Shown: positions 2,408 to 51,075, counted from the first letter of the stretch. The stretch: 51,075 bases of DNA from a virus (IMGVR_UViG_2872698443_000004:1-51075); one strand, 5' to 3'. Program-made: numbers and translations. The notes: generated from the letters alone by a model not told the origin.

Positions 2408-2604
2408 TGGTTGCCTCCTTTGCGCCACATCGCATTCAGATATCTGTTGTCGTTAACAGAACCGAAACTCTTTCTCTTAAGCAATTCCTCTCTCGATGGC
2501 ATTGGCTTTACGCGTTGGCGAATAATCATTTCTGCCGGAAGAATGCCGGGATTGTATGCAAGTCCTCTCATGGTAAATTCCTCAGTCATTACTGATAGCG
2601 CCAT
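2404..2604 (-). CDS. Hypothetical small protein
   Basis: Track ORF begins with TTG at 2724 and overlaps neighbour; first ATG at 2602-2604; weak SD. Confidence 0.3.
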
Positions 2605-2878
2605 AGCGTGAGCGGTAATTACGCAGGCGCGGGTCGATATATTCAGGGAAGTGGGTATATGTGGCTTTGCGGAATGGTCGGATTGATGTCTGGTAAATTC
2701 GCTCGCGTTCTTCTTTCTCTGCAAGCCATATACAGTGGCGAAATTCCTTTTCCTCTTTCGTTTCCTGCGGTAGCGACATTATCCGGTCGTAGTTTTTTCT
2801 GAATTTATCCAGCACCTCCGATACGGAATTGCCGGAACAGCGGCGCACGTCATCCGCACCATACAGAGGCGCTGGCAT
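2582..2878 (-). CDS. Hypothetical phage protein
   Basis: 98-aa ORF, ATG preceded by AGGAGAAA SD. Confidence 0.5.
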
Positions 2879-4123: not shown

Positions 4124-4294
4124 TCAGAATGGACATGGCCCAAGGAAATAACGCTGATTTAATACTTCAGTCTTTGCCGCATTTAAAAATACGCGAACAC
4201 CTTCACGATCTCCCTTCTGGCGATACATTAACGCCTGCTGCGTGTACATGCGTCTCTGTAACTTGCTCTCCTTCACTGTGGTTGCAAGTGACAT
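4124..4294 (-). CDS. Small hypothetical protein (56 aa)
   Basis: ATG preceded by strong AAGGAGATATTC SD; overlaps 4203..4373 in another frame, so only one may be real. Confidence 0.3.
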   Translation of the reverse strand: MSLATTVKESKLQRRMYTQQALMYRQKGDREGVRVFLNAAKTEVLNQRYFLGPCPF

Positions 4295-4373
4295 GAATAT
4301 CTCCTTCGTTACCGATTAATTCTTTCATCTGACGAATGAATTCTTCGTCTGACCAGTTATCTGTAAAACTCAT
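4203..4373 (-). CDS. Small acidic hypothetical protein (56 aa)
   Basis: ATG overlaps kil stop (ATGA coupling); acidic N-terminus MSFTDNWSDEEF. Confidence 0.3.
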   Translation of the reverse strand: MSFTDNWSDEEFIRQMKELIGNEGDIHVTCNHSEGEQVTETHVHAAGVNVSPEGRS

Positions 4374-13094: not shown

Positions 13095-13541
13095 ATGAAG
13101 CAAATATACATGCTTCGCAACGAAGAAATCAGAAACAACGCCATAGACGCAATACTCTCACTTCCCATCGACGACAAGTCACCTCACGAAGTCCACGTTA
13201 GAGAACCCAAACGCAGCAAAGCGCAGAATGACCGTATGTGGCCGATGCTGAACGATGTTTCGCGTCAGGTGCTATGGCATGGTCAACGGCTGGCACCGGA
13301 AGACTGGAAAGACCTGTTCACTGCCCTGTGGCTTAAGACCAAAAAACTGGAGCAACGAAGTGTGCCTGGTATCGACGGTGGCGTTGTCATGCTTGGCGTG
13401 CGTACCAGCAAAATGCGAAAGGCCAGCATGACTGAGCTTATCGAAATCATGTTCTGGTTCGGCTCAGAGCGCAACGTGCGGTGGAGTGATGACTCCCGGC
13501 GAGAGTATGAATGGTCACAACGAAAAGGTAGGGCTGCATGA
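13095..13541 (+). CDS. ninB: NinB recombination protein
   Basis: Start trimmed to ATG 13095 with AAGGAG SD; DQN...DVSRQV.WHG...KWSD motifs as recalled for lambda NinB. Confidence 0.8.
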   Translation: MKQIYMLRNEEIRNNAIDAILSLPIDDKSPHEVHVREPKRSKAQNDRMWPMLNDVSRQVLWHGQRLAPEDWKDLFTALWLKTKKLEQRSVPGIDGGVVMLGVRTSKMRKASMTELIEIMFWFGSERNVRWSDDSRREYEWSQRKGRAA

Positions 13542-14065
13542 CTATCAAATCAAATACGCCAGCACACGACAAGGACTGCTGGCAAACGCCGCTTTGGCTT
13601 TTTGATGCACTGGATATTGAGTTTGGATTCTGGCTGGATTCGGCAGCGAGCGACAAAAATGCTCTGTGCGCTCACTGGTTAACTGAGGCCGACGACGCGC
13701 TCAATTCTGAGTGGGTAAGCCACGGTGCAATATGGAATAACCCACCGTACAGCAATATCAGGCCGTGGGTGGAAAAAGCCGCTGAGCAGTGCATACAACA
13801 GCGACAGACGGTAGTTATGCTTGTGCCAGAGGATATGTCAGTCGGATGGTTCAGCAAGGCTCTGGAGAGTGTCGACGAAGTTCGCATTATCACTGATGGA
13901 CGGATTAATTTTATCGAACCATCGACAGGGCTGGAGAAGAAGGGAAACAGCAAAGGCTCCATGCTGCTGATTTGGCGACCGTTCATCAGTCCTCGACGGA
14001 TGTTTACTACCGTATCCAAAGCGGCATTGATGGCGATCGGGCAGGGCGTCAGGAGGGCGGCATGA
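13538..14065 (+). CDS. Phage DNA N6-adenine methyltransferase
   Basis: NPPY catalytic motif ([10 protein letters not shown]); 175 aa; nin region. Confidence 0.8.
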
Positions 14066-14244: not shown

Positions 14245-14411
14245 TTGACCCAAATCGAAGTTACGAACAAGAAAGCGTCGAGCGGGCTTTAACGTGCGCT
14301 AATTGCGGTCAGAAGCTGCATGTGCTGGAAGTTCACGTATGTGAGCACTGCTGCGCAGAACTGATGAGCGATCCGAATAGCTCAATGTACGAGGAAGAAG
14401 ACGATGAATGA
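14241..14411 (+). CDS. ninF: NinF protein
   Basis: GTG start with GAGGAA SD; [28 protein letters not shown] matches recalled lambda NinF. Confidence 0.7.
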
Positions 14412-15126
14412 GTTAATAAATGGCAATGCCATAAAAATGACAAGCATTGAAATCGCTGAGTTGGTTGGTAAGCGTCATGACAATGTGAAACGTACCATCG
14501 AAACGCTGGCTAAAAATGGTGTTATCCGGCTTCCTCAAATTGAGGATTGTGGAAGAATCAATGGGTTAGGCTTAAATCAAAGTTTTTGTGTGTATGTATT
14601 CGAAGGCGAACAAGGAAAGCGAGACAGTATTGTCGTTGTAGCCCAGTTGTCGCCGGAATTCACGGCTCGCCTTGTTGACCGTTGGCGAGAGCTTGAAGAA
14701 GCTGCGGTTAATATCCCAAAAACGCTACCAGAAGCGTTGCGCCTTGCTGCTGATCTTGCTGAGCAGAAAATGCAACTGGAAAACCAGCTCGCAATTGCCG
14801 CACCTAAAGTTGAGTTTGCCGATCGCGTTGGCGAGGCCAGCGGAATTTTGATTGGAAACTTTGCAAAGGTTGTCGGTATTGGTCCAAACAAACTGTTTGC
14901 GTGGATGCGCGATCACAAAATCCTTATTGCTTCAGGTTCCCGGCGAAATGTGCCAATGCAGGAATATATGGAGCGCGGCTATTTCACAGTGAAAGAAACA
15001 GCGGTCAACACAAATCACGGAATACAGATATCGTTCACCACAAAAATCACCGGGCGTGGTCAACAGTGGCTGACCAGAAAGCTGCTCGATAACGGAATGC
15101 TGAAAGTAACAGGTGAGGCTGCTTAA
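14404..15126 (+). CDS. Rha-family regulator / KilA-C antirepressor-like protein
   Basis: N-terminal TSIEIAELVGKRHDNVKRTIE (Rha-type), C-terminal antirepressor-like domain; 240 aa. Confidence 0.65.
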   Translation: MNELINGNAIKMTSIEIAELVGKRHDNVKRTIETLAKNGVIRLPQIEDCGRINGLGLNQSFCVYVFEGEQGKRDSIVVVAQLSPEFTARLVDRWRELEEAAVNIPKTLPEALRLAADLAEQKMQLENQLAIAAPKVEFADRVGEASGILIGNFAKVVGIGPNKLFAWMRDHKILIASGSRRNVPMQEYMERGYFTVKETAVNTNHGIQISFTTKITGRGQQWLTRKLLDNGMLKVTGEAA

Positions 15127-15960: not shown

Positions 15961-16445
15961 GCATAAGAGAACTAAACCTCACCAAAGAGCAGCACGAGTG
16001 GCTGAATGGCTGGCTTGAACTGTGGGGAGCATGGGTTTATTCAGGCCGCCTGGAAAAGCGCATGAGCAGCGTAATAGCGAAGTTCATGGAGAGCGTAGAG
16101 CCGGGAAGAGTTATGACAAGGCCAATGTGTAATGATGATGATGGAATGTTGATTTCTCAGGTCGTCGATTCCGTCATGTACATTGACAAGAAAGCCTTTG
16201 GCATCCTCCTCAGCTACTACGCTCATGGATCTTCCAAGCATGCCATTGCATCTTACTATCATCGTGTCGCAAGACCTCGCAAGATGTTATGCCGGGGCGG
16301 CGGGCGTATTCAAAAACCATCGCTCGCAACCTGTCGCCGGGAAGTTGACGAAATCCTCAATGCTTCGTTGTTTATGATTTACCCGGTTCTGGATAGTGCG
16401 TTTAAAAATCGGAAACGTGTAGAGAAAATTAAACATGTAGCATAG
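15957..16445 (+). CDS. Q: Late-gene antiterminator Q-like protein
   Basis: 162 aa; last gene of nin region, directly upstream of promoter-like element, tRNAs and lysis cassette; not lambda Q. Confidence 0.55.
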   Translation: MSIRELNLTKEQHEWLNGWLELWGAWVYSGRLEKRMSSVIAKFMESVEPGRVMTRPMCNDDDGMLISQVVDSVMYIDKKAFGILLSYYAHGSSKHAIASYYHRVARPRKMLCRGGGRIQKPSLATCRREVDEILNASLFMIYPVLDSAFKNRKRVEKIKHVA

Positions 16446-16448
16446 AAC

Positions 16449-16535
16449 TTGTTGACATCATTGAGCAAATGAGCAACACTATTGGCATAAGCTGCCGTTA
16501 GTGACTCTTAAGTTGCAACGGTGGCTTTTTTTATT
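16449..16535 (+). promoter_or_regulatory. Putative late promoter pR' / qut with downstream terminator-like hairpin
   Basis: -35 TTGACA at 16452-16457; weak -10; imperfect hairpin 16493-16526 followed by TTTTTTT. Confidence 0.4.
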
Positions 16536-16536
16536 T

Positions 16537-16611
16537 GGGTCAGTCGTATAAAGGTCATTACGGAAGGCTGTTAACCTTCTTATCGTGGTTCGAGTCCACG
16601 CTGTCCCGCCA
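16537..16611 (+). tRNA. tRNA, anticodon GUU (Asn) by manual fold
   Basis: 75 nt cloverleaf: acceptor with one mismatch, perfect anticodon stem GAAGG/CCTTC, loop CTGTTAA, T-arm CGTGG-TTCGAGT-CCACG, 3' CCA; D-stem weak. Confidence 0.5.
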
Positions 16612-16616
16612 AATAT

Positions 16617-16692
16617 GCTGGTTTAGCTCCAATGGTAGAGCAGTCGCCTTGTAAGCGAATGGGTAGCGGTTCAAGTCCGTTAACCAGCACCA
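16617..16692 (+). tRNA. tRNA, anticodon UGU (Thr) by manual fold
   Basis: 76 nt: acceptor GCTGGTT/AACCAGC, D-stem GCTC/GAGC, loop CTTGTAA, T-loop TTCAAGT, 3' ACCA. Confidence 0.65.
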
Positions 16693-16934
16693 TAACTGAG
16701 CCGTAGCCACTGGCTATCCTGAATTCATCAGTGATAGTTACGCTGCGGCATTCTACGCATGACCTTCGTGAAAGCGGGTGGCATGAGGTTGCCCTAACAA
16801 CCTCCTGCCGTTTTGCCCGTGCATATCGGTCACGAACAAATCTGATTACTAAACACAGTAGCCTGGATTTGTTCTATCAGTAACCGACCATATTCCTAAT
16901 TAAATAGAGCAAATCCCCTTATTGGGGGTAAGAC

Positions 16935-17258
16935 ATGAAGATGCCAGAAAAACATGACCTGTTAGCCGCCATTCTCGCGGCAAAGGAACAAGGCATCGGG
17001 GCAATCCTTGCGTTTGCAATGGCGTACCTTCGCGGCAGATATAATGGCGGTGCGTTTACAAAAACAGTAATCGACGCAACGATGTGCGCCATTATCGCCT
17101 GGTTCATTCGTGACCTTCTCGACTTCGCCGGACTAAGTAGCAATCTCGCTTATATAACGAGCGTGTTCATCGGCTACATCGGTACTGACTCGATTGGTTC
17201 GCTTATCAAACGCTTCGCTGCTAAAAAAGCCGGAGTAGAAGATGGTAGGAATCAATAA
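16935..17258 (+). CDS. S: Holin S (lambda-type, dual-start MKM)
   Basis: Matches lambda S as recalled; Met1-Lys2-Met3 dual start; hairpin CCCC-TTATT-GGGG just upstream. Confidence 0.9.
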
Positions 17259-17718
17259 TCAACGTAAGGCGTTCCTCGATATGCTGGCATGGTCAGAGGG
17301 AACTGATAACGGACGTCAGAAAACCAGAAATCATGGTTATGACGTCATTGTAGGAGGAGAGCTATTCACTGATTACTCCGATCACCCTCGCAAACTTGTC
17401 ACGCTAAACCCCAAACTCAAATCAACAGCAGCCGGACGTTATCAGCTTCTTTCCCGTTGGTGGGATGCCTATCGTAAGCAGCTTGGCCTGAAAGACTTCT
17501 CCCCCAAAAGCCAGGACGCAGTGGCATTGCAGCAGATTAAAGAACGTGGCGCTTTACCTATGATTGATCGCGGTGATATCCGTCAGGCAATCGACCGTTG
17601 CAGCAATATCTGGGCTTCACTGCCGGGTGCTGGTTATGGTCAATTCGAGCATAAGGCTGACAGCCTGATTGCAAAATTCAAAGAAGCAGGCGGAACGGTC
17701 AGAGAGATTGATGTATGA
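17242..17718 (+). CDS. R: Endolysin R (lambda-type lytic transglycosylase)
   Basis: 158 aa, matches lambda R as recalled. Confidence 0.9.
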
Positions 17719-18152
17719 GCAGAGTCACCGCGATTATCTCCGCTCTGGTTATCTGCATCATCGTCTGCCTGTCATGGGCGGTTAATCATTACCGTGATAA
17801 CGCCATCGCCTACAAAGAGCAGCGCGATAAAGCCACGTACATCATCGCTGACATGCAGAAGCGTCAACGTGATGTAGCAGAACTTGACGCCAGATACACA
17901 AAGGAGCTTGCTGATGCTAACGCGACTATCGAAAGTCTCCGTGCTGATGTTTCTGCTGGGCGTAAGCGCCTGCAAGTCGCCGCCACCTGTGCAAAGTCAA
18001 CGACCGGAGCCAGCAGCATGGGCGATGGAGAAAGCCCAGGACTTACAGCAGATGCTGAACTCAATTATTACCGTCTCCGAAGTGGAATCGACAGGATAAC
18101 CGCGCAGGTTAACTACCTGCAGGAGTACATCAGGACTCAGTGCCTGAAATAA
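17715..18152 (+). CDS. Rz: Spanin inner-membrane subunit Rz
   Basis: N-terminal TM helix then coiled-coil; follows R; contains embedded Rz1. Confidence 0.8.
17947..18099 (+). CDS. Rz1: Spanin outer-membrane lipoprotein Rz1 (embedded in Rz, +1 frame)
   Basis: MFLLGVSAC lipobox then proline-rich [13 protein letters not shown]; entirely within Rz. Confidence 0.7.
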
Positions 18153-18184
18153 TTTTTTTGCAAATCACAAAGTCCATTTAATGA

Positions 18185-18208
18185 GCCTCGCGATGCGGGG
18201 CTTTTTTA
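18185..18208 (+). terminator. Rho-independent terminator after lysis cassette
   Basis: GCCTCGC-GAT-GCGGGGC hairpin followed by TTTTTT. Confidence 0.5.
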
Positions 18209-18351
18209 TATCTGAATTTCACAGCGCATCTCACGCGCATATTAACGAGAGCCTTTCAGTAAGCGAGCCTGAGAAATGCCGTTATAGGTGGCGACCTCTC
18301 TCGGGCGGCTTTTCTGTGAGACAGGCTCACTTTCTAAAAGGTAAAGACGCT

Positions 18352-18870
18352 ATGAATCATCAATTGGCTAATCTCGATTTCCGGGACATGGTGGTTGTTT
18401 CTGGTGATCGCGTGATCACAACCTCCCGCAAGGTAGCAGCTTACTTCGACAAGCAGCATCACCACATCATTCAGAAAATCGAAAAGCTAGACTGTTCGGA
18501 TGAATTTCTAACCAGCAACTTTTCGCGGGTTACCTATGAACACAAGGGTAATCAGTATGTTGAATATGAAATTTCCAAAGACGGTGCGATGTACATCATC
18601 ATGTCGTTTACCGGCAAAAAAGCTGCCGCCATCAAAGAGGCGTTTATCAAAGCATTTAATTGGATGCGTGACAGGCTGATGGAGTTGGCTCACTCATACC
18701 AAAGAGAGCACAACGAGTTAATGCTGGAGTTCATGAAGGAAAAGGATGTTGCCAGTATGTCAGGACGCTTGCTGAACCGCTGGGGCAGGATCAAAAAACC
18801 GCAACTCATAGCAAGAATCGAAAGGCTTGAGCAGCAGGCGCAAATATCGATCCCCGGACTGCCAAAGTGA
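18352..18870 (+). CDS. rha: Rha-family phage regulatory protein
   Basis: Start trimmed to ATG 18352 (track ORF begins inside the terminator); Rha-like N-terminal domain. Confidence 0.6.
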   Translation: MNHQLANLDFRDMVVVSGDRVITTSRKVAAYFDKQHHHIIQKIEKLDCSDEFLTSNFSRVTYEHKGNQYVEYEISKDGAMYIIMSFTGKKAAAIKEAFIKAFNWMRDRLMELAHSYQREHNELMLEFMKEKDVASMSGRLLNRWGRIKKPQLIARIERLEQQAQISIPGLPK

Positions 18871-40801: not shown

Positions 40802-41510
40802 CATCCGGCGCACATGACAAAACTGAGACACACAAATATTTGCACTGGATTGCAAGGCTTTGTGCTATTCGATAGTTAAGGTGGATCACTCCACCTTTTC
40901 ATCAAGCCAATCCGCCCACCACTGCATCATTTCTCTGCGCTTATCGTGGCAGATGCCTCACTATCACACGGTGATGGTTCATTACTGGTTTGCATAATGG
41001 ATAGAGAACTGCGGATAAAAGATATCCCAAAACCCCAAAATCTCATCTTTAGGATTTGCAGAAAGGGAGGCGTGAACAAATACCTGCGCATGAAAGCGGA
41101 ACTAGTCCAGATGTGATGCTTGTGGTGATCACATACATCATTAACGATGCTCGTTATGGTGAGTTTGATGACTACCCTCTGAAGTGAAAATTGTGTTGTG
41201 TACCAAATTGCGTACCAAACTAAAATCACAAATCATGAAACCCTTGTTCATGGCGGTTCTCAGGGGTGTTGCGCGTAATCGTGAAACAAAAAGGTAGATT
41301 GTTGCTTACCGTCATTCATCATTAGGTTAAATCCGTTATTTCTGCTGTCTGCCAGAGTATCAAATATCACCGTACTAATCAGCTTTAGCGCCACAAGATC
41401 ATGTCAGATAAAAATGAGAGGGTAGTCACATTTTCTTGCACTTTATTCCAGCCAGTTCATAAGTATTTCCGTAAAAAGAACAGCTATTTGAAACTCCTGA
41501 GGGTTTGCTG

Positions 41511-42677
41511 TTGAAACGCCGTCTTATTATTGCTGCTTCTTTGTTCGTTTTTAACTTATCGTCTGGTTTTGCGGCGGAAAACATTCCTTTTTCACCTCAG
41601 CCTCCAGAGATTCGTGCCGGGTCCTGGGTATTGATGGATTACACCACCGGTCAGATCCTCACCGCGGGTAATGAGCATCAACAGCGCAATCCCGCCAGCC
41701 TGACAAAGCTGATGACGGGTTATGTCGTGGATCGCGCTATCGATAGTCATCGCATTACGCCAGACGATATTGTCACCGTGGGGCGCGATGCGTGGGCGAA
41801 AGATAATCCGGTGTTTGTCGGTTCTTCACTGATGTTTTTGAAAGAGGGCGATCGCGTATCGGTACGTGATTTAAGCCGTGGTTTAATTGTGGATTCCGGA
41901 AATGACGCTTGTGTTGCTCTGGCTGACTATATTGCCGGTGGGCAACGGCAGTTTGTTGAAATGATGAACAACTATGCCGAGAAGCTGCATCTCAAGGATA
42001 CGCATTTTGAAACAGTGCATGGTCTGGATGCACCTGGCCAGCATAGCTCGGCTTATGATTTAGCTGTGCTTTCTCGCGCTATCATCCACGGCGAGCCCGA
42101 GTTTTATCATATGTACAGTGAGAAAAGTCTCACCTGGAACGGTATCACCCAGCAAAACCGTAACGGGTTGTTGTGGGATAAAACCATGAATGTTGACGGC
42201 CTGAAAACGGGTCATACTTCTGGTGCCGGGTTTAATCTCATTGCTTCGGCTGTAGATGGGCAGCGTCGTCTCATTGCAGTGGTAATGGGGGCTGACAGTG
42301 CAAAAGGTCGTGAGGAAGAGGCAAGAAAATTACTGCGTTGGGGGCAACAAAACTTTACTACGGTGCAAATTTTGCACCGTGGGAAAAAGGTCGGAACGGA
42401 ACGCATCTGGTATGGCGATAAAGAAAATATCGACCTGGGAACGGAACAAGAGTTCTGGATGGTGCTACCGAAAGCCGAAATTCCACATATCAAAGCCAAA
42501 TATACCCTTGATGGTAAAGAGCTCACCGCGCCAATTAGCGCCCATCAGCGGGTAGGGGAAATTGAACTTTACGACCGTGATAAACAGGTGGCGCACTGGC
42601 CGCTGGTTACCCTGGAATCTGTCGGGGAAGGCGGCATGTTTTCCCGCCTGAGTGATTATTTCCACCATAAGGCCTGA
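41511..42677 (+). CDS. dacD: D-alanyl-D-alanine carboxypeptidase DacD (PBP6b)
   Basis: SLTK active-site motif, signal peptide; likely TTG start 41511 with AGGG SD (track start 41505 also TTG). Confidence 0.85.
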   Translation: MKRRLIIAASLFVFNLSSGFAAENIPFSPQPPEIRAGSWVLMDYTTGQILTAGNEHQQRNPASLTKLMTGYVVDRAIDSHRITPDDIVTVGRDAWAKDNPVFVGSSLMFLKEGDRVSVRDLSRGLIVDSGNDACVALADYIAGGQRQFVEMMNNYAEKLHLKDTHFETVHGLDAPGQHSSAYDLAVLSRAIIHGEPEFYHMYSEKSLTWNGITQQNRNGLLWDKTMNVDGLKTGHTSGAGFNLIASAVDGQRRLIAVVMGADSAKGREEEARKLLRWGQQNFTTVQILHRGKKVGTERIWYGDKENIDLGTEQEFWMVLPKAEIPHIKAKYTLDGKELTAPISAHQRVGEIELYDRDKQVAHWPLVTLESVGEGGMFSRLSDYFHHKA

Positions 42678-42795
42678 CCTTTCTTTTGCAGCAGACTGGC
42701 AGGAGTGCGAGTCTGCTCGCATAATCAACACTCATTCCTTGTGGTTTTAATATTGCAACTATACTGTATATAAAAACAGTGTTAATGGAGGCGTC

Positions 42796-43269
42796 ATGAA
42801 CTACGAGATTAAGCAGGAAGAGAAACGTACCGTTGCAGGTTTCCATCTCGTTGGCCCGTGGGAACAGACGGTAAAGAAAGGCTTTGAGCAGTTGATGATG
42901 TGGGTAGATAGTAAAAATATTGTGCCGAAGGAGTGGGTTGCTGTCTATTACGACAATCCAGATGAAACACCCGCCGAAAAATTACGCTGCGGCACCGTCG
43001 TGACGGTGCCGGGTTACTTTACGCTTCCCGAAAACAGTGAGGGCGTCATTCTGACAGAAATTTCAGGTGGTCAGTATGCGGTGGCGGTAGCTCGTGTAGT
43101 CGGTGATGATTTTGCTAAACCCTGGTATCAGTTCTTTAATAGCCTCTTGCAGGACAGTGCTTATGAAATGTTACCAAAGCCCTGCTTCGAGGTTTACTTG
43201 AACAATGGCGCGGAAGATGGGTACTGGGATATCGAAATGTATGTTGCGGTGCAGCCAAAACATCACTAA
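42796..43269 (+). CDS. sbmC: DNA gyrase inhibitor SbmC (GyrI)
   Basis: 157 aa, GGAGG SD; matches recalled SbmC. Confidence 0.85.
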
Positions 43270-43466
43270 TTCATCTCAGGGCGGTGTGTTAACGCGATGA
43301 CCACTCTTTTTTTGAAAGCGAAAAGAGTAAGATGCGCCTTTCAAATTTTTCGCTCCTGCCGGGAAATTACACTGTTCCCGGTATGTCCGTCGGATAATTC
43401 AGAGGCGCGCCTTCTGGCCGACAGATGAGTTATGAGCGCTTTTAATCTTCATTACGGAGTTTCTGC

Positions 43467-44525
43467 GTGCGTGCCGATAAGTCATTAAGCCCGTTTGAAA
43501 TCCGGGTATACCGCCATTACCGCATTGTGCATGGTACTCGGGTCGCGCTGGCATTCCTGCTCACTTTTCTCATTATCCGCCTGTTTACTATCCCGGAAAG
43601 CACCTGGCCGCTGGTCACCATGGTGGTGATTATGGGGCCAATCTCGTTCTGGGGTAACGTTGTCCCTCGCGCCTTCGAACGTATTGGCGGTACGGTGTTG
43701 GGTTCGATTTTGGGTCTTATCGCTCTGCAACTGGAGTTAATTTCGTTACCGCTGATGTTAGTCTGGTGCGCGGCGGCGATGTTTCTTTGCGGTTGGCTGG
43801 CGCTGGGCAAGAAACCGTATCAAGGATTATTGATTGGGGTGACGCTGGCAATTGTTGTTGGTTCCCCGACAGGTGAAATTGATACGGCGTTATGGCGAAG
43901 CGGCGATGTGATCCTCGGCTCTTTACTGGCAATGTTGTTTACCGGTATCTGGCCACAACGGGCGTTCATCCACTGGCGCATTCAACTGGCGAAAAGTCTG
44001 ACCGAGTATAATCGGGTCTATCAATCTGCATTCTCACCGAACTTACTCGAACGCCCACGTCTGGAAAGCCATCTACAAAAACTCTTGACCGATGCCGTGA
44101 AAATGCGTGGGCTGATTGCGCCCGCCAGCAAAGAAACTCGTATTCCAAAATCGATATATGAAGGTATCCAGACCATTAATCGCAATCTGGTTTGTATGCT
44201 GGAGTTGCAAATCAATGCATACTGGGCCACGCGCCCCAGCCATTTCGTGTTATTGAACGCGCAAAAACTTCGTGATACCCAGCATATGATGCAGCAAATA
44301 CTGCTGAGCCTTGTTCATGCGCTGTACGAAGGTAATCCGCAGCCGGTTTTTGCCAATACGGAAAAATTGAACGATGCTGTGGAAGAGCTGCGTCAGTTGC
44401 TGAATAACCACCATGACCTGAAGGTTGTGGAAACACCAATCTATGGTTATGTGTGGCTGAACATGGAAACGGCACATCAGCTTGAGTTGCTATCGAATCT
44501 GATTTGCCGGGCCTTGCGCAAATAA
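43467..44525 (+). CDS. yeeA: Inner membrane protein YeeA
   Basis: 352 aa multi-TM; GTG start with GGAG SD; synteny sbmC-yeeA-yeeX. Confidence 0.8.
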   Translation: MRADKSLSPFEIRVYRHYRIVHGTRVALAFLLTFLIIRLFTIPESTWPLVTMVVIMGPISFWGNVVPRAFERIGGTVLGSILGLIALQLELISLPLMLVWCAAAMFLCGWLALGKKPYQGLLIGVTLAIVVGSPTGEIDTALWRSGDVILGSLLAMLFTGIWPQRAFIHWRIQLAKSLTEYNRVYQSAFSPNLLERPRLESHLQKLLTDAVKMRGLIAPASKETRIPKSIYEGIQTINRNLVCMLELQINAYWATRPSHFVLLNAQKLRDTQHMMQQILLSLVHALYEGNPQPVFANTEKLNDAVEELRQLLNNHHDLKVVETPIYGYVWLNMETAHQLELLSNLICRALRK

Positions 44526-44696
44526 TTCCTGAACTTCAGAATCATCTTGCTGCTGCTTCGATTCAGCAAGGATAAAGGGTATGATAGTGAAAAGGGATAA
44601 AAGCATTGTCATCTGCGGCAGCTATGAGTAATGTTGGCCCTAACGAATAGCGGTTGCTTAAACGAATCCGACTCTCACATTATCAGGGGTATAAAA

Positions 44697-45026
44697 ATGG
44701 AAACTACCAAGCCTTCATTCCAGGACGTACTGGAATTTGTTCGTCTGTTCCGTCGTAAGAACAAACTGCAACGTGAAATTCAGGACGTTGAGAAAAAGAT
44801 TCGTGACAACCAGAAGCGCGTCCTGTTGCTGGACAACCTGAGCGATTACATCAAGCCGGGGATGAGCGTTGAAGCAATCCAGGGCATCATCGCCAGCATG
44901 AAAGGTGACTATGAAGATCGCGTTGACGATTACATCATCAAAAATGCCGAGCTCTCCAAAGAACGCCGCGATATCTCCAAAAAGCTGAAAGCTATGGGCG
45001 AAATGAAAAACGGCGAAGCGAAGTAA
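44697..45026 (+). CDS. yeeX: YeeX (UPF0265 family)
   Basis: 109 aa from ATG 44697; downstream hairpin GAGGGTTGCC-CG-GCAACCCTC. Confidence 0.8.
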
Positions 45027-45126
45027 TTCCCGTTTTATTCAATGAGGGTTGCCCGGCAACCCTCATTGCTCATTGATTCTTATCTGTGTATCACCGTCAT
45101 CATTCTCATCTGAGAACCTGTCGAAA

Positions 45127-45309
45127 TTAACAACAGCCTTCTTCTGTATGCAGCAAGGCAAAAAGTTCTGTAACTCCATTGTTATTAACTGCACTGGTTA
45201 CTAACACGTTGTGCGCTCCAGCTTCCCGTAACCAACTTTTCACCAAAGATATTTGTTCCATGCTGGCTAAATCTGCTTTGGTTACTACTCCAATGACCGG
45301 GTGATTCAT
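45127..45309 (-). pseudogene. yoeF: EutP/PduV-like GTPase C-terminal fragment (yoeF-like)
   Basis: Only C-terminal ~60 aa (VIGVVTKADLA...) look protein-like; N-terminal part of track ORF is antisense to a transposase remnant. Confidence 0.4.
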
Positions 45310-45368
45310 GGCCCGGTAGGGCGTTTTTACCTCTAATTCCTGCTTCAGCGCTGAGATTCCTGCTTGTT

Positions 45369-45509
45369 GCCGGAAAAGCAGGCACCTGCCGTCTGAACGG
45401 TATCGATCCGGAAGCGTATCTGCGCCATATTCTGAGCATACTGCCGGAATGGCCCTCCAACCGTGTTGACGAACTCCTGCCATGGAACGTAGTTCTCACC
45501 AATAAATAA
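45369..45509 (+). pseudogene. Transposase C-terminal remnant
   Basis: Open frame ending ...GIDPEAYLRHILSILPEWPSNRVDELLPWNVVLTNK; no start or N-terminal part; followed by hairpin. Confidence 0.4.
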
Positions 45510-45923
45510 GCGTCAATACGGTGCTCCGTTGACGCTTACTTTAATCCGTTTTCTGAGCTTAGATTTTTCTGTTCCTACCCAGACCGTGGATTTGGAATTC
45601 ATTTTTTGTCAGGTCAATGCTAATCGTTAAAACGGCCATAACGCACCTCCACTGGAAGGTTTATCAGTAATATCCTACCGTTGCTTCATGGTCGGGGCGT
45701 CCATTCCATTATTATCGGTTTTCCTTTCTGTTTATAAATGAAAACGCCAGCTGTATTCAGGCTGGCGTCAGGGGAAATGAAGCCTGTTGAGTGAGATTCA
45801 CCGGTTCTGGTGCAGAAGCTGCAGATGGCGCAGGGTAAGGACATCTTCTCTTGCCTGCTTAATACAGGACAACAGTGCTGTTTCTGTGGTTAATGGCACT
45901 ATACCCTGCATCACTGCATTGTC

Positions 45924-46118
45924 TTACAGCAACTGGTGAGGGCTGGCATAAGTTGCCGGTGTTTCGGTAGAGTCACGGTCATCCACCACGCGGAGTGAAT
46001 AACCTTTTTCAGCGGCCTTATTAATCAGTTCAGTGATATTAACACCATCAATGTCAACGACAATGTGCCCCATATCCAGCGCCTGTACGTTAACGCTGTC
46101 GGCTTCCAGTGTCATCAT
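45924..46118 (-). CDS. yeeW: YeeW-like protein
   Basis: 64 aa; start overlaps cbtA stop (ATGA). Confidence 0.75.
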   Translation of the reverse strand: MMTLEADSVNVQALDMGHIVVDIDGVNITELINKAAEKGYSLRVVDDRDSTETPATYASPHQLL

Positions 46119-46488
46119 TTCGCCTCCGGATACTTACCCAGGGTAATGTTATTTACCGTTCTGTAATTGTCGCGGGTCATCAGGCCGGTCGCCCTGCGAG
46201 CCCGGAGGATATCGATGCTGTTTATTAACTGAGAGCGGGTACAGGCGCTGAATCCCGGCTGGTCGGTAGCACCAGCGCGTATTTTTCCACGAGAAAGTTC
46301 ACCGCATCACACAGTGAAATGCCTGCCTCAATATGCTGCTCAATCACACGTTCATCGGCAAAAGGTGTGTCATTCAGTGTGAGGCCATAGTGCTGGTCCA
46401 GCAGTCGGGACAGCAGTATCTGCCAGATTTCAACAGGAGACGGGCGAGAACTGGTCGCCTGCCCGGGTAATACAGGTAATGTTTTCAT
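46115..46488 (-). pseudogene. cbtA: CbtA (YeeV) toxin gene, frameshifted
   Basis: N-terminal 73 aa read normally then 14 out-of-frame codons to a stop at 46225; recognisable C-terminus continues in another frame down to 46115. Confidence 0.7.
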
Positions 46489-46576
46489 ACTGAAGATTTT
46501 CCTGATATGCAGATATAAAAATGGAAAAGTGGCGTGGTGAAAACACCAGGCCGTAGCAGAAGGCTATTCTGGAGAG

Positions 46577-46945
46577 TTAATTTTTCATTTCGGGCGTCGG
46601 ATAAACAGCCAGATAAACGTAACCACAACTGCTGAGGGTATCGGCTTTGCAGGTCAGCCCTTTTGCATACAGCGTGACGGTATGCTGATGGCGGGGATTC
46701 AGTTCACCGCTGGTGAGCATGAGTTCCAGTTGTTTCATCAGCAGCGGAAAGGCCTGGTCCAGGTGGTACGCATCTGCATCGCTGAACAGGCCTCTGATAC
46801 CGGCGCGGTCGGCAAGGTAATGCAACCGGTTACCCTCCTGCACCAGACGTGCCCCGAAACAGGGCGTCACGGTGCAGGGCAGCCCCCACCAGGGGCGGTC
46901 GTGATTGTCGTCGGGAAGTGTTGTCCCGGGGAGTGTGTCTGACAC
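46577..46945 (-). CDS. cbeA: CbeA (YeeU) antitoxin
   Basis: 122 aa, intact. Confidence 0.85.
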   Translation of the reverse strand: MSDTLPGTTLPDDNHDRPWWGLPCTVTPCFGARLVQEGNRLHYLADRAGIRGLFSDADAYHLDQAFPLLMKQLELMLTSGELNPRHQHTVTLYAKGLTCKADTLSSCGYVYLAVYPTPEMKN

Positions 46946-47018
46946 GATAAAATCCTTACAGAAAATCGGCTAAGAATGGTCCGGTAGTGGCGATAATTCT
47001 GCTCATCAGAATTCCCAC

Positions 47019-47240
47019 TCAGTTCAGGGTGACGCTCATCAGCCGGACATACGGACCAAAACTGTCCTTACGGCGTTCAGCAAACACGGCCAGCACACCG
47101 GGAATATCCTGCACTTCACGACCGGTATACGCTTCAGCACTGCCGTGCCAGCGGTATTTACCGGTACAGAACGGAAAAAGACGGGATGTCGGATGTTGTT
47201 GGTGAATACGCATGGCTTCACCACGGGTGATAATTTTCAT
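47019..47240 (-). CDS. yeeT: YeeT-like protein
   Basis: 73 aa, synteny. Confidence 0.75.
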   Translation of the reverse strand: MKIITRGEAMRIHQQHPTSRLFPFCTGKYRWHGSAEAYTGREVQDIPGVLAVFAERRKDSFGPYVRLMSVTLN

Positions 47241-47302
47241 AATGGGATACCTCTGAAGACAGAAGATAAAAGTGAAAACAGGTGTGATGTGGTTGTGAAG
47301 GG

Positions 47303-47794
47303 TTAAAGCAGACCATGTTCGGCAAAGGAGAAAACCTGGTTGCCACCGACTATCAGATGGTCCGGCACCCGGATATCCACCAGGCCCAGTGCCTGTACCA
47401 GACGTTCCGTGATAAGGCGGTCTGCCTTACTGGGTGTGACTTCACCGGAGGGGTGATTGTGTGCCAGCACCACGGCAGCGGCATTGTGGTACAGGGCGCG
47501 TTTAATCACTTCCCGGGGATGGACTTCCGTGCGGTTGATGGTGCCGGTAAAGAGGGTTTCACCGGCAATCAGTTGATTCTGGTTATTCAGATACAGCACC
47601 CGGAATTCTTCACGCTCCAGTCCCGCCATGTTCAGAATCAGCCATTCCCGTGCTGCACGGGTGGAGGTGAAGGCCACGCCGGGTTCATGAAGATGGCGGT
47701 CCAGGGTTTTCAGGGCCCGTTGAATGAGGCTGCGCTCGCCGGGCGTCATCTCTCCGGGCAGAAAGGAAAGTTGTTGCATTGTGCTTCTCTCCAT
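47303..47794 (-). CDS. yeeS: RadC-like JAB-domain protein (YeeS)
   Basis: HNHPSG JAMM motif; start may be the internal Met (MQQLSF). Confidence 0.8.
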   Translation of the reverse strand: MERSTMQQLSFLPGEMTPGERSLIQRALKTLDRHLHEPGVAFTSTRAAREWLILNMAGLEREEFRVLYLNNQNQLIAGETLFTGTINRTEVHPREVIKRALYHNAAAVVLAHNHPSGEVTPSKADRLITERLVQALGLVDIRVPDHLIVGGNQVFSFAEHGLL

Positions 47795-48274
47795 TCAGTC
47801 GATGATGCGCATAATGGCGCTGCATTCCGGATGCTGCAGGGCGTAATCCCGCAACCGGTAATAATGGACCGTCATGGCATAATTCTCCGTACGACAGGCA
47901 TGATGACTGTACGTCATCAGACAGGCGGCAATACCGGCGGCTTCCGGGCTCATTTCTGCGCGGTTACCGTTCATGGCATTGAACAGTACCCATGTTTCGT
48001 CATCATCGTCATCCGGTTCGGGTGCCATAAATGCCCCGCCGTTGTTCAGGGTGTACAGATTCCAGATACCACCGCAGTAGTCTTCGCACAGACGGTCCAT
48101 CCAGCCGAAGACACGGGGCTCCAGGGTCACCCACTGTGGAATGAGGCCAAAATGCTGCGGCCAGAAGCTGATGCGCTGTTCATCAGGGACGAGGCTGGCA
48201 ACCAACTGAGGCGGATTATTCTCTGGTGTTGTAGCTGAATAAATTGTGGGGGTATTCTGAGAAACGGTTTTCAT
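47795..48274 (-). CDS. Antirestriction protein (KlcA/ArdB-like)
   Basis: 159 aa with acidic patch EPDDDDDE; usual position upstream of radC-like gene. Confidence 0.65.
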   Translation of the reverse strand: MKTVSQNTPTIYSATTPENNPPQLVASLVPDEQRISFWPQHFGLIPQWVTLEPRVFGWMDRLCEDYCGGIWNLYTLNNGGAFMAPEPDDDDDETWVLFNAMNGNRAEMSPEAAGIAACLMTYSHHACRTENYAMTVHYYRLRDYALQHPECSAIMRIID

Positions 48275-48355
48275 GAGATAACTCCTTAAATAACAAATAA
48301 ATGTGTGTTTTTCAGGAACGAAAGCTGAATGATTCCCTCACTCAGGGAAACGGCA

Positions 48356-49177
48356 TCAGCGCAGGCTCTCCAGCATCGTTTCTGCCATCACCCACAATGC
48401 GCGATTGAGCTTAATGTCGGTATCAATGCTGTGAATGGCCCGGGTATGGATACGTTTTCCTTTTGCACTGCGACCGGAAATCCCGCCTTTCAGCATATTC
48501 TCCTGGATGGTCTGATATGCGCTCCACAGGTCCTTACCGTAATCCTCCCGGCGTCGCGGCGTCAGAATGTCGGCGGTGGTGACGGGCTGATGTTCGTCAC
48601 CATAACGGTAAGTCAGTGCCGCCTGTGCCAGCGCCTGGCGTGCCGGTGGCGGCAGGACCAGCGACTGCATGGCATCACGCTTCTCCTCTATCCGGTCAAA
48701 CACGCCCACCACCTCGTAAGCCCCTTCGATAACTTTCTCCACTACATTTCCCCGGTGTGGAACACGCACTTCCCCCAGAGACTGGCCACAGACGCACCCG
48801 TTCTGGCAGACGAACCTGAAGTAACCCGGCAGCATCTGGTAGCTGGAGGTACCGTCATGAGAGTTGAGCAGAATAATTTCAGGGACATGTTCTCCGTTTA
48901 TCTCTCCGGCCCGCCGCAGACGCAGCATGTGTTTTGTGTATCCCCGGCGGCCCGGGTCGCGCACACGGGTCTGGCAGGCGAAGAACGGCTGAAAGCCTTC
49001 CCGCTGCAGATTTTCCAGGACGGTAATGGTGGGAATGTACGCATACCGTTCACTGCGGGAGGTGTGCCGGTCTTCCCCAAAAATACTGGGTACATGGCGT
49101 ATCAGTTCTTCATGTGTCAGCGGACGGTCACGGCGTATCTGGTTTGCAGCATAACCAAAACGACTTGCTAATCGCAT
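48356..49177 (-). CDS. DUF932-like protein
   Basis: 273 aa; synteny with antirestriction/radC cluster. Confidence 0.6.
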   Translation of the reverse strand: MRLASRFGYAANQIRRDRPLTHEELIRHVPSIFGEDRHTSRSERYAYIPTITVLENLQREGFQPFFACQTRVRDPGRRGYTKHMLRLRRAGEINGEHVPEIILLNSHDGTSSYQMLPGYFRFVCQNGCVCGQSLGEVRVPHRGNVVEKVIEGAYEVVGVFDRIEEKRDAMQSLVLPPPARQALAQAALTYRYGDEHQPVTTADILTPRRREDYGKDLWSAYQTIQENMLKGGISGRSAKGKRIHTRAIHSIDTDIKLNRALWVMAETMLESLR

Positions 49178-49221
49178 ACTTTGCTCCTTATCGGTGGTTA
49201 AGATTTACTGGTGCAATAAAT

Positions 49222-49254
49222 GAAAAAAGCCGCGTCTCCCGGAGAAGACGCGGC
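49222..49254 (-). terminator. Rho-independent terminator (minus strand)
   Basis: GCCGCGTCT-CCCGGAGA-AGACGCGGC hairpin with U-tract on minus strand; downstream of secreted-protein operon. Confidence 0.45.
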
Positions 49255-49397
49255 CTGACGGGTGAAATGAATAAGGTTTATTGTCTGAGAGGCCTTTCAC
49301 TGGCGAGCCACGCATTAAGCGGCTTTCCGGTAACAATGGCTGGGGCTGTATTTACCTTTGATATTAATAATGTGCAGAGAAACGCATGGTTTACTCC

Positions 49398-49808
49398 TTA
49401 GATTTTAAGTTTGTCCTGGGCTACAACGACAGGTTTTCCGGATGTGTCGATGACTCCTACCGTCGGTACGCCATTTTTGATTTCGAAGAACGGTTTGTTG
49501 CTACCTGAGCACAGTTGATTGTCCCCGTATTCAATCATTTGTGCTTTCCCGGTTTTCAGGTTAACTACCGAGACAGTGTAGTCGTAGCACCAGGCACCAC
49601 CACGTTCAAGCACGAAAACATAGCTGTTATCTTTATAGTTGAACTGATTCTTTGTCTGGCAATTCATACCGTCAATTTCGGTACAGGAAAACGCTTCTGT
49701 AGTATTAACGTATTTGATGTTATTTGGCAGTTTTACTTGTTTCGCAGTAGCGAAGACAGAGAACAGAATAGTTACAGCAACGAGTAAAGTTTTGATAAAA
49801 GTTTTCAT
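49398..49808 (-). CDS. Hypothetical secreted protein (136 aa)
   Basis: Signal peptide MKTFIKTLLVAVTILFSVFATA; four Cys; AT-rich. Confidence 0.55.
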   Translation of the reverse strand: MKTFIKTLLVAVTILFSVFATAKQVKLPNNIKYVNTTEAFSCTEIDGMNCQTKNQFNYKDNSYVFVLERGGAWCYDYTVSVVNLKTGKAQMIEYGDNQLCSGSNKPFFEIKNGVPTVGVIDTSGKPVVVAQDKLKI

Positions 49809-49823
49809 GATAGACTCCTTAAA

Positions 49824-50312
49824 TTAGTTAACCGCAGCTACGTAGTTTTTCACCAGATACGCGAATTCATGCACGCCAATTTCACCGAACCAAACCAGGT
49901 AGGCCGGGTCATCTAAACCAAAGTAACGGTAGCCAACAACTTCATGGGTTTTTGGGTTATAGAGTGTTACGATAAAGTCCCAGCCGCAGGTATTGGCTTT
50001 GCAACCGTCGCCCTGGAACCAGACTGTACCGTTAATGTTTACTGGCGTGATACCTCCACCAGGGCCATCCATATAGCCGCCTTTACCGAACATGCCGCTC
50101 AGTCCGACCGGTTTTAATGCTTTGTCGATAGCGGCTTTGTAGGTAGCGTCACCTTCGTACAACTCGTACGTTGATGGACACGCTCCAGGTTGTTCAGCCC
50201 AGGCTTCCGGGTTACAACTAAGAGCTTGTTTTACGGTAGCCGCTTCTGCGTTAAAGTTAAAGCCCGTGAACAGAACCGCCAGAAATAACATAAGGGTATG
50301 TAAACGTTTCAT
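49824..50312 (-). CDS. Hypothetical secreted protein (162 aa)
   Basis: Signal peptide MKRLHTLMLFLAVLFTGFNFNAEA; Gly-rich, several Cys; AT-rich. Confidence 0.55.
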   Translation of the reverse strand: MKRLHTLMLFLAVLFTGFNFNAEAATVKQALSCNPEAWAEQPGACPSTYELYEGDATYKAAIDKALKPVGLSGMFGKGGYMDGPGGGITPVNINGTVWFQGDGCKANTCGWDFIVTLYNPKTHEVVGYRYFGLDDPAYLVWFGEIGVHEFAYLVKNYVAAVN

Positions 50313-50614
50313 TGTAAATATTCTTCCGTTGTAAATGGCGCTGGAAAATTTCTCATCAGTGAAACCTTCCGGAAGTTTCCCCCCTTGTATGATGTATATC
50401 GCCAGTATTTTATTTCATCCCGGCTGTGATTTTTATATTCCCCGGCACGTGCAATAACGCTGACCAGAGATATAAGGCTCATTAATAACTTTACAGGTAA
50501 TTTCATAATTAAATTTCCAGTGAGTGAATTGACAGGTGAGGGGTAAAACTTTCTCTCAGGTAATATATATCTGAAAATATTTTCAATAACACCAGACAGG
50601 AAAAACACCACCAC
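50309..50614 (-). CDS. Hypothetical small protein
   Basis: 101-aa ORF overlapping start of downstream gene; internal Met MKLPVKLLMSLISLVSVIA may be true start; weak SD. Confidence 0.3.
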   Translation of the reverse strand: MVVFFLSGVIENIFRYILPERKFYPSPVNSLTGNLIMKLPVKLLMSLISLVSVIARAGEYKNHSRDEIKYWRYTSYKGGNFRKVSLMRNFPAPFTTEEYLQ

Positions 50615-50682
50615 AGGCGGTGGCGTTTCTTTGGGGCGTCTTTATTTAATCCGGGCCATCGCGTTTCTCAGTGCCAAATCTG

Positions 50683-51075
50683 GGTAATGACTCCAACTTA
50701 TTGATAGTGTTTTATGTTCAGATAATGCCCGATGACTTTGTCATGCAGCTCCACCGATTTTGAGAACGACAGCGACTTCCGTCCCAGCCGTGCCAGGTGC
50801 TGCCTCAGATTCAGGTTATGCCGCTCAATTCGCTGCGTATATCGCTTGCTGATTACGTGCAGCTTTCCCTTCAGGCGGGATTCATACAGCGGCCAGCCAT
50901 CCGTCATCCATATCACCACGTCAAAGGGTGACAGCAGGCTCATAAGACGCCCCAGCGTCGCCATAGTGCGTTCACCGAATACGTGCGCAACAACCGTCTT
51001 CCGGAGCCTGTCATACGCGTAAAACAGCCAGCGCTGGCGCGATTTAGCCCCGACATAGCCCCACTGTTCGTCCAT
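50683..51075 (-). mobile_element. IS1, second copy (partial, runs off window end)
   Basis: Same terminal repeat and sequence identical to first copy over 393 bp; same orientation. Confidence 0.9.
50698..51075 (-). CDS. insB: IS1 transposase InsB (truncated by window end)
   Basis: Identical to InsB C-terminal 125 aa of first copy. Confidence 0.85.

Follow-up and report, generated by a model that had tools for sequence, protein, structure and literature searches.

The window (the whole 51,075-bp stretch of DNA analysed here) contains exactly two tRNA genes, both on the plus strand, which encode a tRNA-Asn(GUU) and a tRNA-Thr(UGU) and are almost certainly functional members of the known phage 21-type cassette. 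On the whole of the evidence, they probably form an intact pair of elongator tRNAs in a Q-dependent late cassette, serving mainly as nuclease-resistant replacements for host tRNAs and secondarily as a supply of decoders for ACA. The original prediction had placed two adjacent tRNA genes at positions 16537-16692, between Q and the lysis cassette, with the anticodons GUU and UGU, encoded CCA ends and a gap of 5 nt; ARAGORN, run over the whole window, called both genes with these anticodons, and Rfam and the sequence itself agreed with the remaining details.

Two tRNA genes at the head of the late operon

Both genes matched Rfam RF00005 in cmscan, tRNA-Asn with 55.3 bits (E = 2.7e-9), nearly twice the gathering score of 29, and tRNA-Thr with 61.5 bits (E = 5.5e-11). 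Both are also 100% identical to the annotated genes of phage 21 and Sf6, and to the corresponding genes of HK446. A chance origin is excluded by these E-values together with the complete identity to annotated tRNA genes of other phages. The sequence and the cmscan alignment showed that the universal tertiary and loop nucleotides U8, A14, the D-loop GG and U33 are present in both tRNAs, as are G53-T54-T55-C56, A58 and C61, and the 3' CCA is encoded in each gene. The elements that define synthetase identity are well established for E. coli, and they are found here: tRNA-Asn carries the AsnRS set, consisting of the anticodon G34-U35-U36 and the discriminator G73, and tRNA-Thr carries the ThrRS elements G1-C72, C2-G71, G35 and U36 with the discriminator A73. 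The weak D-stem and the single acceptor mismatch that had been ascribed to the first tRNA are real, since in the cmscan alignment of tRNA-Asn the acceptor-stem pair U4.U69 is non-standard and U13.U22 does not pair in the D-stem, which is left with three Watson-Crick pairs. A non-pair at 13:22 is common among ordinary tRNAs. The tRNA-Thr contains one non-pair, G27.A43, at the base of the anticodon stem.

The surrounding features are listed in Table 1. The coordinates of the late promoter were moved from the annotated phage 21 record by a fixed offset of 15199 taken from the alignment. The hairpin of the terminator tR' folds at -20.2 kcal/mol (z = -4.56), and 0 of 200 shuffled sequences folded as well; tRNA-Asn adjoins it, starting at 16537 directly past the U-tract. 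A sigma-70 promoter scan called nothing between Q and S, and the same scan also missed pR' and tR', so that its result is uninformative.

Table 1. Features of the late-operon head in the window, with the evidence for each.
Feature	Position	Strand	Evidence and remarks
Q antiterminator gene, phage 21 type, 162 aa	15957-16445	+	PF06530 Phage_antitermQ, E = 8.8e-25
Late promoter pR', whole span	16452-16487	+	assigned by homology only
pR' -35, TTGACA	16452-16457	+	homology to phage 21 and Sf6 records; sequence read; begins 7 nt past the Q stop codon
Two-part Q-binding element (QBE), ATTGAGCA/AATGAGCA	16460-16475	+	homology to phage 21 and sequence read
pR' -10	16475-16480	+	homology to phage 21
Transcription start of pR'	16487	+	homology to phage 21
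tR' intrinsic terminator, hairpin and U7 tract	16489-16536	+	RNA fold; terminator annotation in phage 21 and Sf6
tRNA-Asn(GUU), anticodon gtt	16537-16611	+	75 nt; ARAGORN, Rfam RF00005
Spacer AATAT, 5 nt	16612-16616	+	read from the sequence
tRNA-Thr(UGU), anticodon tgt	16617-16692	+	76 nt; ARAGORN, Rfam RF00005
3' trailer hairpin	16700-16749	+	RNA fold, -28.2 kcal/mol, z = -4.89
S, R, Rz lysis cassette, next genes on the late transcript	16935-18152	+	Pfam, position
S (holin), lambda-type lysis cassette	16935-17258	+	Pfam Phage_holin_3_1, E = 2.4e-30
R	17242-17718	+	position and an endolysin/lysozyme ORF at the equivalent place in Sf6 and HK446; no Pfam match
Rz	17715-18152	+	Pfam Phage_lysis/Rz, E = 6.3e-35

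Among the closest counterparts of this region is that of phage 21 (GenBank OL657228), which is 98.3% identical in nucleotide sequence over positions 16400-16754 and whose record annotates the first gene as an antiterminator. The Q21-type gene, the -35 element, the QBE, the terminator and the 3' trailer hairpin are all shared with the window. The two differ in the spacer, which is AACAT in phage 21 and AATAT in the window, and by one base in the promoter region. They part about 62 nt beyond tRNA-Thr: phage 21 continues with a T-run past the hairpin and then with its pinholin and SAR-endolysin genes, whereas the window lacks the T-run and switches at about 16754 to the lambda-type S, R and Rz genes.

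The region that regulates the late genes in phage 21, comprising Q21, pR', the QBE, tR' and the tRNAs, was reportedly described by Guo, Kainz and Roberts in 1991 (PMID 1704887), and according to the literature cited in the GenBank record, transcripts from pR' are said to end at tR' unless QBE-bound Q21 modifies the paused polymerase. Near-identity to phage 21 makes it very probable that the cassette in the window's prophage, too, is expressed late and in a Q-dependent manner. RNA polymerase starting at pR' would then halt at tR' unless modified by Q21; once Q is made, read-through would make both tRNAs the first products of the late transcript, before S, R, Rz and the virion genes, and RNase P together with 3' trimming by exonucleases would release the mature tRNAs with their encoded CCA. 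A literature search for expression, processing or charging of the cassette in its natural context, for example in BTP1 transcriptomics, found none.

Distribution and reassortment of the cassette

The Asn/Thr tRNA pair at the start of the late operon of lambda-like phages is already known. Tandem Asn(GUU) and Thr(UGU) genes were described downstream of Q in SfI, with one or both likewise in Sf6, ST64T, PS3 and p21 (PMC3636060), and the phage L paper gives the same pair and position for Sf6, while counting lambda and P22 among the lambdoid phages that lack this cassette (PMC8022706). In a megablast search, positions 16400-16950 matched 180 phage records, and tRNA-Asn and tRNA-Thr are annotated at this place in phage 21, Sf6, BTP1, SPN9CC, Kapi1, mEp506 and others. 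The 156-bp pair was also found in 369 of 5426 complete E. coli genomes (~7%), mostly at identities of at least 99%, and in most of these genomes PGAP annotates it as tRNA-Asn/tRNA-Thr. When one representative genome per species was searched, the matches came only from Enterobacteriaceae, barring two contigs of metagenome-assembled genomes (MAGs) that are probably misbinned.

The suggestion that GUU and UGU would be an unusual pair of anticodons therefore did not hold: the combination is in print, is canonical in the late-leader module of phage 21 and recurs in all the records and genomes counted above. Thr(UGU) is moreover the commonest 3' partner of tRNA-Asn(GUU) among the IMG/VR matches listed: it occurs in 13 of the 80 contigs and in 8 of the 69 lineages, ahead of Tyr (7 lineages), Met (6) and Pro (6). 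The sample for this count was unbiased as to partner and took in contigs having a tRNA of any kind behind tRNA-Asn(GUU) within a range of 62-92 nt. An earlier version of the scan with a range of 72-100 nt was discarded, because tight class-I pairs, with their 70-nt spacing, fell outside it, which favoured Tyr and Ser. The scan specific to the Asn/Thr pair is biased by its ascertainment and was used for collecting variants and for establishing the existence of unrelated lineages, not for enrichment. The "Met(cat)" gene of family 3 was considered as an initiator tRNA, which is an OLD target, and was rejected by eye; it resembles an ileX-type tRNA-Ile2. As a genome feature, then, the pair is a matter of routine annotation, a known cassette at a known place.

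Among viral contigs, the cassette stands behind at least five different upstream modules and ahead of two major lysis modules. Upstream we found a Q21-type region at 38 loci, a Q-lambda-type region at 15 and four further types at 6 loci; downstream, a lambda S-type lysis region as in the window was present at 36 loci and a phage 21-type lysis region at 14. Homology of the cassette begins at the T-tract of the terminator, and the trailer including the hairpin is kept for about 60 nt past tRNA-Thr in all 61 of 61 cassette copies, after which the two alternative downstream modules start. The cassette always follows the terminator T-tract and precedes the first late gene. Judged from these junctions, the cassette is an independently reassorting mosaic unit, and selection would act on the cassette itself.

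HK446 illustrates such an exchange. Its tRNA-Asn, spacer, tRNA-Thr, trailer hairpin and lambda-type lysis genes match those of the window (96.8% identity over 16527-18257), but upstream a lambda-type Q, pR' and long leader stand where the window has the Q21 type, and homology starts exactly at the terminator T-tract. Sf6, SfI, ST64T, BTP1 and other lambdoid phages, mostly P22-like, share the pair and its position after a Q-like gene, although their virion modules and integration sites are unlike those of the window. The window itself is an E. coli prophage of ~41 kb, which combines a lambdoid early region with a SEN34-like myovirus virion module.

Related arrangements carry other tRNAs. Stx-converting lambdoid phages have ileZ-argN-argO downstream of Q, again a small tRNA cluster that opens the late transcript and separates Q from the lysis genes; these three decode the rare codons AUA and AGA/AGG, which are the codons most enriched in the window prophage, although it carries none of those tRNAs. 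An ileX-type example of a tRNA behind Q has also been cited (PMC3636060). Phage L has Asn and Leu(UAA) rather than Asn and Thr (PMC8022706).

Anti-phage tRNases and codon use

The anticodon of Thr(UGU) is a target of three anti-phage nucleases, OLD, AriB and HepS, and that of Asn(GUU) is a target of AriB. P2 OLD cleaves host Thr(UGU) after nt 27-29, and HK446 Thr(UGU), supplied from a plasmid and not from the late operon, brought the plating of HK97, HK542 and Bas34 on OLD cells back to near wild-type, whereas E. coli Thr(UGU) gave no rescue (bioRxiv 10.64898/2026.07.10.737580). According to the same preprint, Bas32 Thr(UGU) resists cleavage as seen by Northern blot; a single viral Thr(UGU) neither rescued lambda nor relieved OLD toxicity in recB cells; and its authors are guarded about the HK446 tRNA, which in their view may offset a host tRNA broken by integration. 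In our alignment the window tRNA-Thr is identical to the HK446 Thr(UGU) reported to counter OLD, and rescue in trans by this identical gene implies that tRNA-Thr is functional. The OLD-countering gene is thus not peculiar to HK446 but is one half of a widespread, reassorting cassette. As to the other half, ARAGORN finds a tRNA-Asn gene right next to tRNA-Thr in HK446. The tRNAs are not annotated in the HK446 GenBank record, and the preprint, which mentions "a single" tRNA, overlooked the tRNA-Asn(GUU) that is the constant partner of Thr(UGU).

AriB of the PARIS system, a nuclease related to OLD, cleaves host Lys(UUU), Thr(UGU) and, secondarily, Asn(GUU) at 40|41 within U36-A-A-U39-C40; T5 escapes it by changes at positions 39 and 41, and determinants beyond the anticodon stem also matter (PMC12409363). 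HepS of Gifsy-1 cleaves Thr(UGU) (PMC13043305). The window tRNA-Thr reads U36-A-A-G39-C40-G41 where thrU of K-12 has U-A-A-U-C-A, and the window tRNA-Asn reads U36-A-A-C39-C40-U41 where asnT of K-12 has U-A-A-U-C-C. Both phage tRNAs therefore differ from the host at positions 39 and 41, and tRNA-Thr differs at 27-29 as well; its anticodon stem is its most diverged helix, with 2 of 10 positions identical to the host as against 8 of 8 in the D-stem. T5 offers a parallel in this respect: position 39 is not U in either set, so that the UAAU motif of the host, adjacent to the 40|41 cut, is broken in both, and the T5 and window tRNA-Thr have the same C31-G39 pair. In other respects the two differ: the T5 tRNA sequences are unrelated to those of the window, T5 is a virulent phage whose tRNA genes belong to an array of over 20 and have promoters of their own, and of the three anticodons relevant to AriB the window shares two and lacks the Lys(UUU) variant that T5 also has.

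The differences at 39 and 41 are weak evidence of resistance, because phage tRNAs differ from those of the host at many stem positions. Nor did we accept as a test the rule that a broken UAAU makes a tRNA resistant to AriB, given that a related enterobacterial family of Asn tRNAs retains the UAAUCA motif and that determinants outside the anticodon stem contribute (PMC12409363). The prophage has a homolog, 96% identical, of gp33, the reported trigger of OLD. HK446 also carries the anti-OLD protein Oad2 (gp27); Oad2 is absent from the window prophage, and the homology breakpoints with HK446 flank exactly that ORF. The phage has no tRNA-Lys(UUU), the primary target of AriB, and lacks four of the five OLD targets, so that the pair alone cannot neutralise AriB or OLD as these have been characterised.

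With these limits, we consider the chances about even that evasion of host defence is the chief benefit of the pair and ACA supply a secondary one. The diverged phage copies would sustain late translation once anti-phage tRNases have cut the host copies. Both the resistance of tRNA-Asn to AriB and the relative weight of the two benefits are what we infer from these comparisons. In a stronger and more tentative form, which we think possible but would not favour, the Asn(GUU)-Thr(UGU)-hairpin unit might be a dedicated, horizontally shuffled means by which temperate enterobacterial phages counter OLD-family Toprim tRNases (P2 OLD, PARIS AriB and possibly HepS), with tRNA-Asn acting as an AriB-resistant replacement as tRNA-Thr would be an OLD-resistant one, and with U4.Y69, the 3-bp D-stem and the A/U-rich D-loop serving to evade nucleases. 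If true, this would explain why Asn(GUU) and Thr(UGU) recur in many unrelated phage lineages as their only pair of tRNAs. The remaining interest of the cassette lies here, in the possibility that tRNA-Asn is an AriB-resistant companion to a putatively OLD-resistant tRNA-Thr. The anticodon of tRNA-Asn is that of a documented secondary target of AriB.

The pair would at the same time enlarge the pool of tRNAs decoding ACA and AAC/AAU during the bulk synthesis of structural proteins, and the main alternative to a defence role is that it does nothing else, the tRNAs only supplying decoders of these codons for late synthesis. We compared codon use in 63 prophage ORFs with that in 42 annotated K-12 genes, which alone make up the host baseline. 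ACA stood at 14.2 per 1000 codons in the prophage and 5.4 in the K-12 sample (2.6-fold, p = 1.5e-13), in agreement with the enrichment reported for SfI (PMC3636060). For asparagine, AAU was only 1.45-fold more frequent than in the K-12 sample (p = 8.8e-5) and AAC was unchanged (odds ratio 1.06, p = 0.47). Of the enrichment expected for both tRNAs, the part concerning ACA was thus borne out and the part concerning the Asn codons essentially was not. E. coli has four genes for tRNA-Asn, of which asnT was the one compared here, and a single gene, thrU, for UGU. AGG (7.6-fold), AGA (6.6-fold), AUA (3.2-fold), CGA, GGA and UCA were all enriched above ACA, yet the phage has no tRNA for any of them. 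Codon use therefore explains Thr(UGU) only partly and does not explain tRNA-Asn, the significance of which the SfI authors had called not clear in 2013 (PMC3636060).

A role confined to codon supply is in keeping with the ACA excess and the single thrU gene, with the place of the cassette at the head of the late operon, which suits late translation, and with the coat gene of phage L, in which 24 of 25 Asn codons are AAC (PMC8022706). We nevertheless consider it rather unlikely. Apart from the near-absence of Asn codon enrichment in the presence of four host tRNA-Asn genes, and the more strongly enriched codons left unserved, it does not explain why the tRNAs have diverged so far from those of the host, the anticodon stem most of all, and it offers no account of why E. 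coli Thr(UGU) failed against OLD where the HK446 copy worked.

Constraint on the two tRNAs

We next consider the evidence that both genes are maintained as tRNAs. Among the phage 21-type copies in viral contigs, 47 of 60 have a tRNA-Asn identical to that of the window. The tRNA-Asn alignment comprised 13 distinct variants, including one divergent relative whose acceptor stem is the same while its D, anticodon and T stems differ, the D-stem being canonical with a perfect 4 bp. Over these 13 variants, 89.7% of the cells of the cloverleaf were paired and 7 pairs showed compensatory double changes, while controls with slid partners reached at most 53.8% of cells paired. For tRNA-Thr, 95.8% of cells were paired and 6 pairs had double changes, the slid-partner controls pairing far worse than the cloverleaf, and G1-C72 and C2-G71 were invariant in 16 variants. 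The covariation scores were equalled by 0 of 500 shuffles for either tRNA, counts that are not probabilities because the sequences in each alignment are related. The conservation of anticodon loops, identity elements and T-loops, together with the compensatory changes in the stems, argues that these are decoding tRNAs and not mere processing signals.

The same observations bear on a possible role in cis, in which RNase P and RNase E, cutting at the two tRNAs and at the 3' hairpin, would detach the leader and set the 5' end or the stability of the late mRNA, decoding being incidental, or in which the cassette is a neutral hitch-hiker. The invariable place of the cassette past the terminator T-tract and ahead of the first late gene, the strong hairpin found in every one of the copies and the lack of the cassette in many lambdoid phages, such as lambda and P22, would agree with this. 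It would not lead one to expect, however, that loops, identity elements and compensated stems are conserved, that the same cassette is kept behind unrelated leaders, or that HK446 Thr(UGU) acts in trans from a plasmid, and we regard it as improbable.

Still less probable is that tRNA-Thr alone is functional and tRNA-Asn a decaying pseudo-tRNA, as had been suggested for the first gene. Besides the U4.U69 mismatch and the D-stem of three Watson-Crick pairs, a few singleton variants have broken D-stem pairs, and the anticodon stem of one viral copy has lost 1 nt. Against this stand the Rfam score, the identity of most viral copies, the compensatory pairs and the shuffle result, the retained G73 and GUU, and the PGAP calls of tRNA-Asn in most of the E. 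coli genomes; covariation and conservation together rule the pseudo-tRNA out for practical purposes. Positions 4 and 69 are unpaired, as U.U or U.C, in 13 of 13 variants, including the divergent relative with the canonical D-arm, and for this reason we take U4.Y69 to be a retained feature of this tRNA and not a sign of decay.

Temperate phages frequently integrate into tRNA genes. It is very improbable that the pair offsets a host tRNA gene disrupted by prophage integration: the HK446 attP does resemble thrW, but thrW encodes Thr(CGU), another isoacceptor than Thr(UGU), the position behind tR' ties expression to Q and hence to lytic growth and not to lysogeny, nothing is offered for tRNA-Asn, and in the window the right end of the prophage adjoins an intact gene that we take to be dacD, with no other tRNA or tRNA fragment at the junction or elsewhere in the window (ARAGORN).

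The chromosomal genes that follow the prophage are a Peptidase_S11/PBP5 carboxypeptidase gene, a GyrI-like gene, a cbtA/cbeA toxin-antitoxin pair and IS1. From their Pfam domains and from recognition of the protein sequences, the first two are presumably dacD and sbmC. A 5' truncation of dacD at the prophage junction was considered and rejected, as the gene is intact and has a TTG start.

The Asn-Thr pair and OLD-related genes of HK446

Phage HK446 (locus L127) is said to encode a single tRNA-Thr(UGU), and its gp33 and gp27/Oad2 are reported as a trigger of the P2 anti-phage tRNase OLD and as an anti-OLD protein, respectively (bioRxiv 10.64898/2026.07.10.737580). No tRNA is annotated in the GenBank record of HK446 (JQ086372); when ARAGORN was run on the same sequence, it called tRNA-Asn(GUU) at 1511-1585 and a second tRNA at 1591-1666, placing Asn 5 nt upstream of Thr(UGU), and both genes are identical to those of the window. 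The prophage and HK446 also have homologs of gp33 and Abc2 in common, whereas gp27/Oad2 is absent from the prophage: the blastn breakpoints bracket precisely that ORF, with the junction at 2423/2424 in the window. The prophage thus carries a trigger homolog and the presumably resistant tRNA-Thr without the protein inhibitor.

Positions of features in the window and in two altered cassettes
Feature	Sequence	Position	Strand	Remark
HK446 Abc2 homolog	window	2585-2878	-	97% identity
HK446 gp33 homolog	window	4206-4373	-	96% aa identity
Phage Dam-type N6-adenine methyltransferase	window	13538-14065	+	nin region; Pfam Dam, E = 6e-65
Rha+ANT antirepressor-like protein	window	14404-15126	+	nin region
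tRNA-Asn positions 4 and 69	window	16540 and 16605		pyrimidine-pyrimidine mismatch, acceptor stem
Strong hairpin	window	16700-16749	+	within ~60-nt trailer 3' of tRNA-Thr; -28.2 kcal/mol, z = -4.9
Rha+ORF11CD3 protein	window	18181-18870	+	immediately 3' of Rz
Chromosomal flank of prophage	window	41504-51075
Altered cassette, phage 21-type	L014	1135-1368
Altered cassette, phage 21-type	L056	1207-1440

Conserved features of the cassette

The 4:69 mismatch of tRNA-Asn was retained in all 13 of the 13 distinct Asn variants, as U.U or, in three loci, as U.C. Since these variants include a divergent family (e.g. loci L012, L055 and L093) that differs in each of the D, anticodon and T stems, the sequence comparison suggests that the mismatch itself is under selection. 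The trailer hairpin was likewise kept in every cassette copy examined (61/61). In phage 21-type contexts it looks like an intrinsic terminator, because a T-run comes next; no T-run lies 3' of it in the window or HK446. The hairpin may serve in processing or stabilisation, or else be what is left of a terminator.

Asn(GUU) and Thr(UGU) in other contexts

Asn(GUU) and Thr(UGU) are the sole tRNAs within 4-14 kb in numerous viral lineages whose tRNA sequences are unrelated (loci L017, L023, L039, L047, L053, L070, L074, L077, L079, L080, L096, L103, L110 and L124). When sampling was unbiased, Asn(GUU) was most often partnered by Thr(UGU), though narrowly, with 8 lineages against 7 for Tyr. A second, enterobacterial-looking family with Asn(GUU) and Thr(UGU) 2 nt apart, in which Asn starts with GATGGTG (L020, L022, L049, L059 and 14 other loci), retains the host-like UAAUCA sequence in its Asn; often a gene called as "Met(cat)" lies ~1.5 kb away, which resembles an ileX-type tRNA-Ile2, the AUA decoder, and sometimes there is a Ser(UGA) gene. 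In L014 and L056, tRNA-Asn is followed by an 84-nt stretch and then by tRNA-Gly(UCC), reported as another OLD target; the stretch retains CTTGTAA yet is not called as a tRNA, and is probably a decayed tRNA-Thr. The tRNA-Asn core was also matched exactly on short contigs binned as gut anaerobes, a Segatella copri MAG (L312) and a Collinsella MAG (L316); these contigs most likely come from enterobacterial phages and were misbinned.

Cargo genes and the chromosomal flank

The Dam-type methyltransferase, Rha+ANT and Rha+ORF11CD3 genes look like moron-type cargo flanking the late-operon start, and the slot after Rz that holds the Rha+ORF11CD3 gene in the window is occupied by a KilA-N protein gene in HK446. 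At the right junction of the prophage there is neither a tRNA gene nor a tRNA fragment. The flank contains an intact carboxypeptidase gene with a TTG start, which we take to be dacD, and a GyrI-like gene, presumably sbmC. It also contains a CbtA toxin of 87 aa, which looks truncated in that it covers 73 of 112 profile positions, together with its antitoxin CbeA, and an IS1 transposase lies at the edge of the window.
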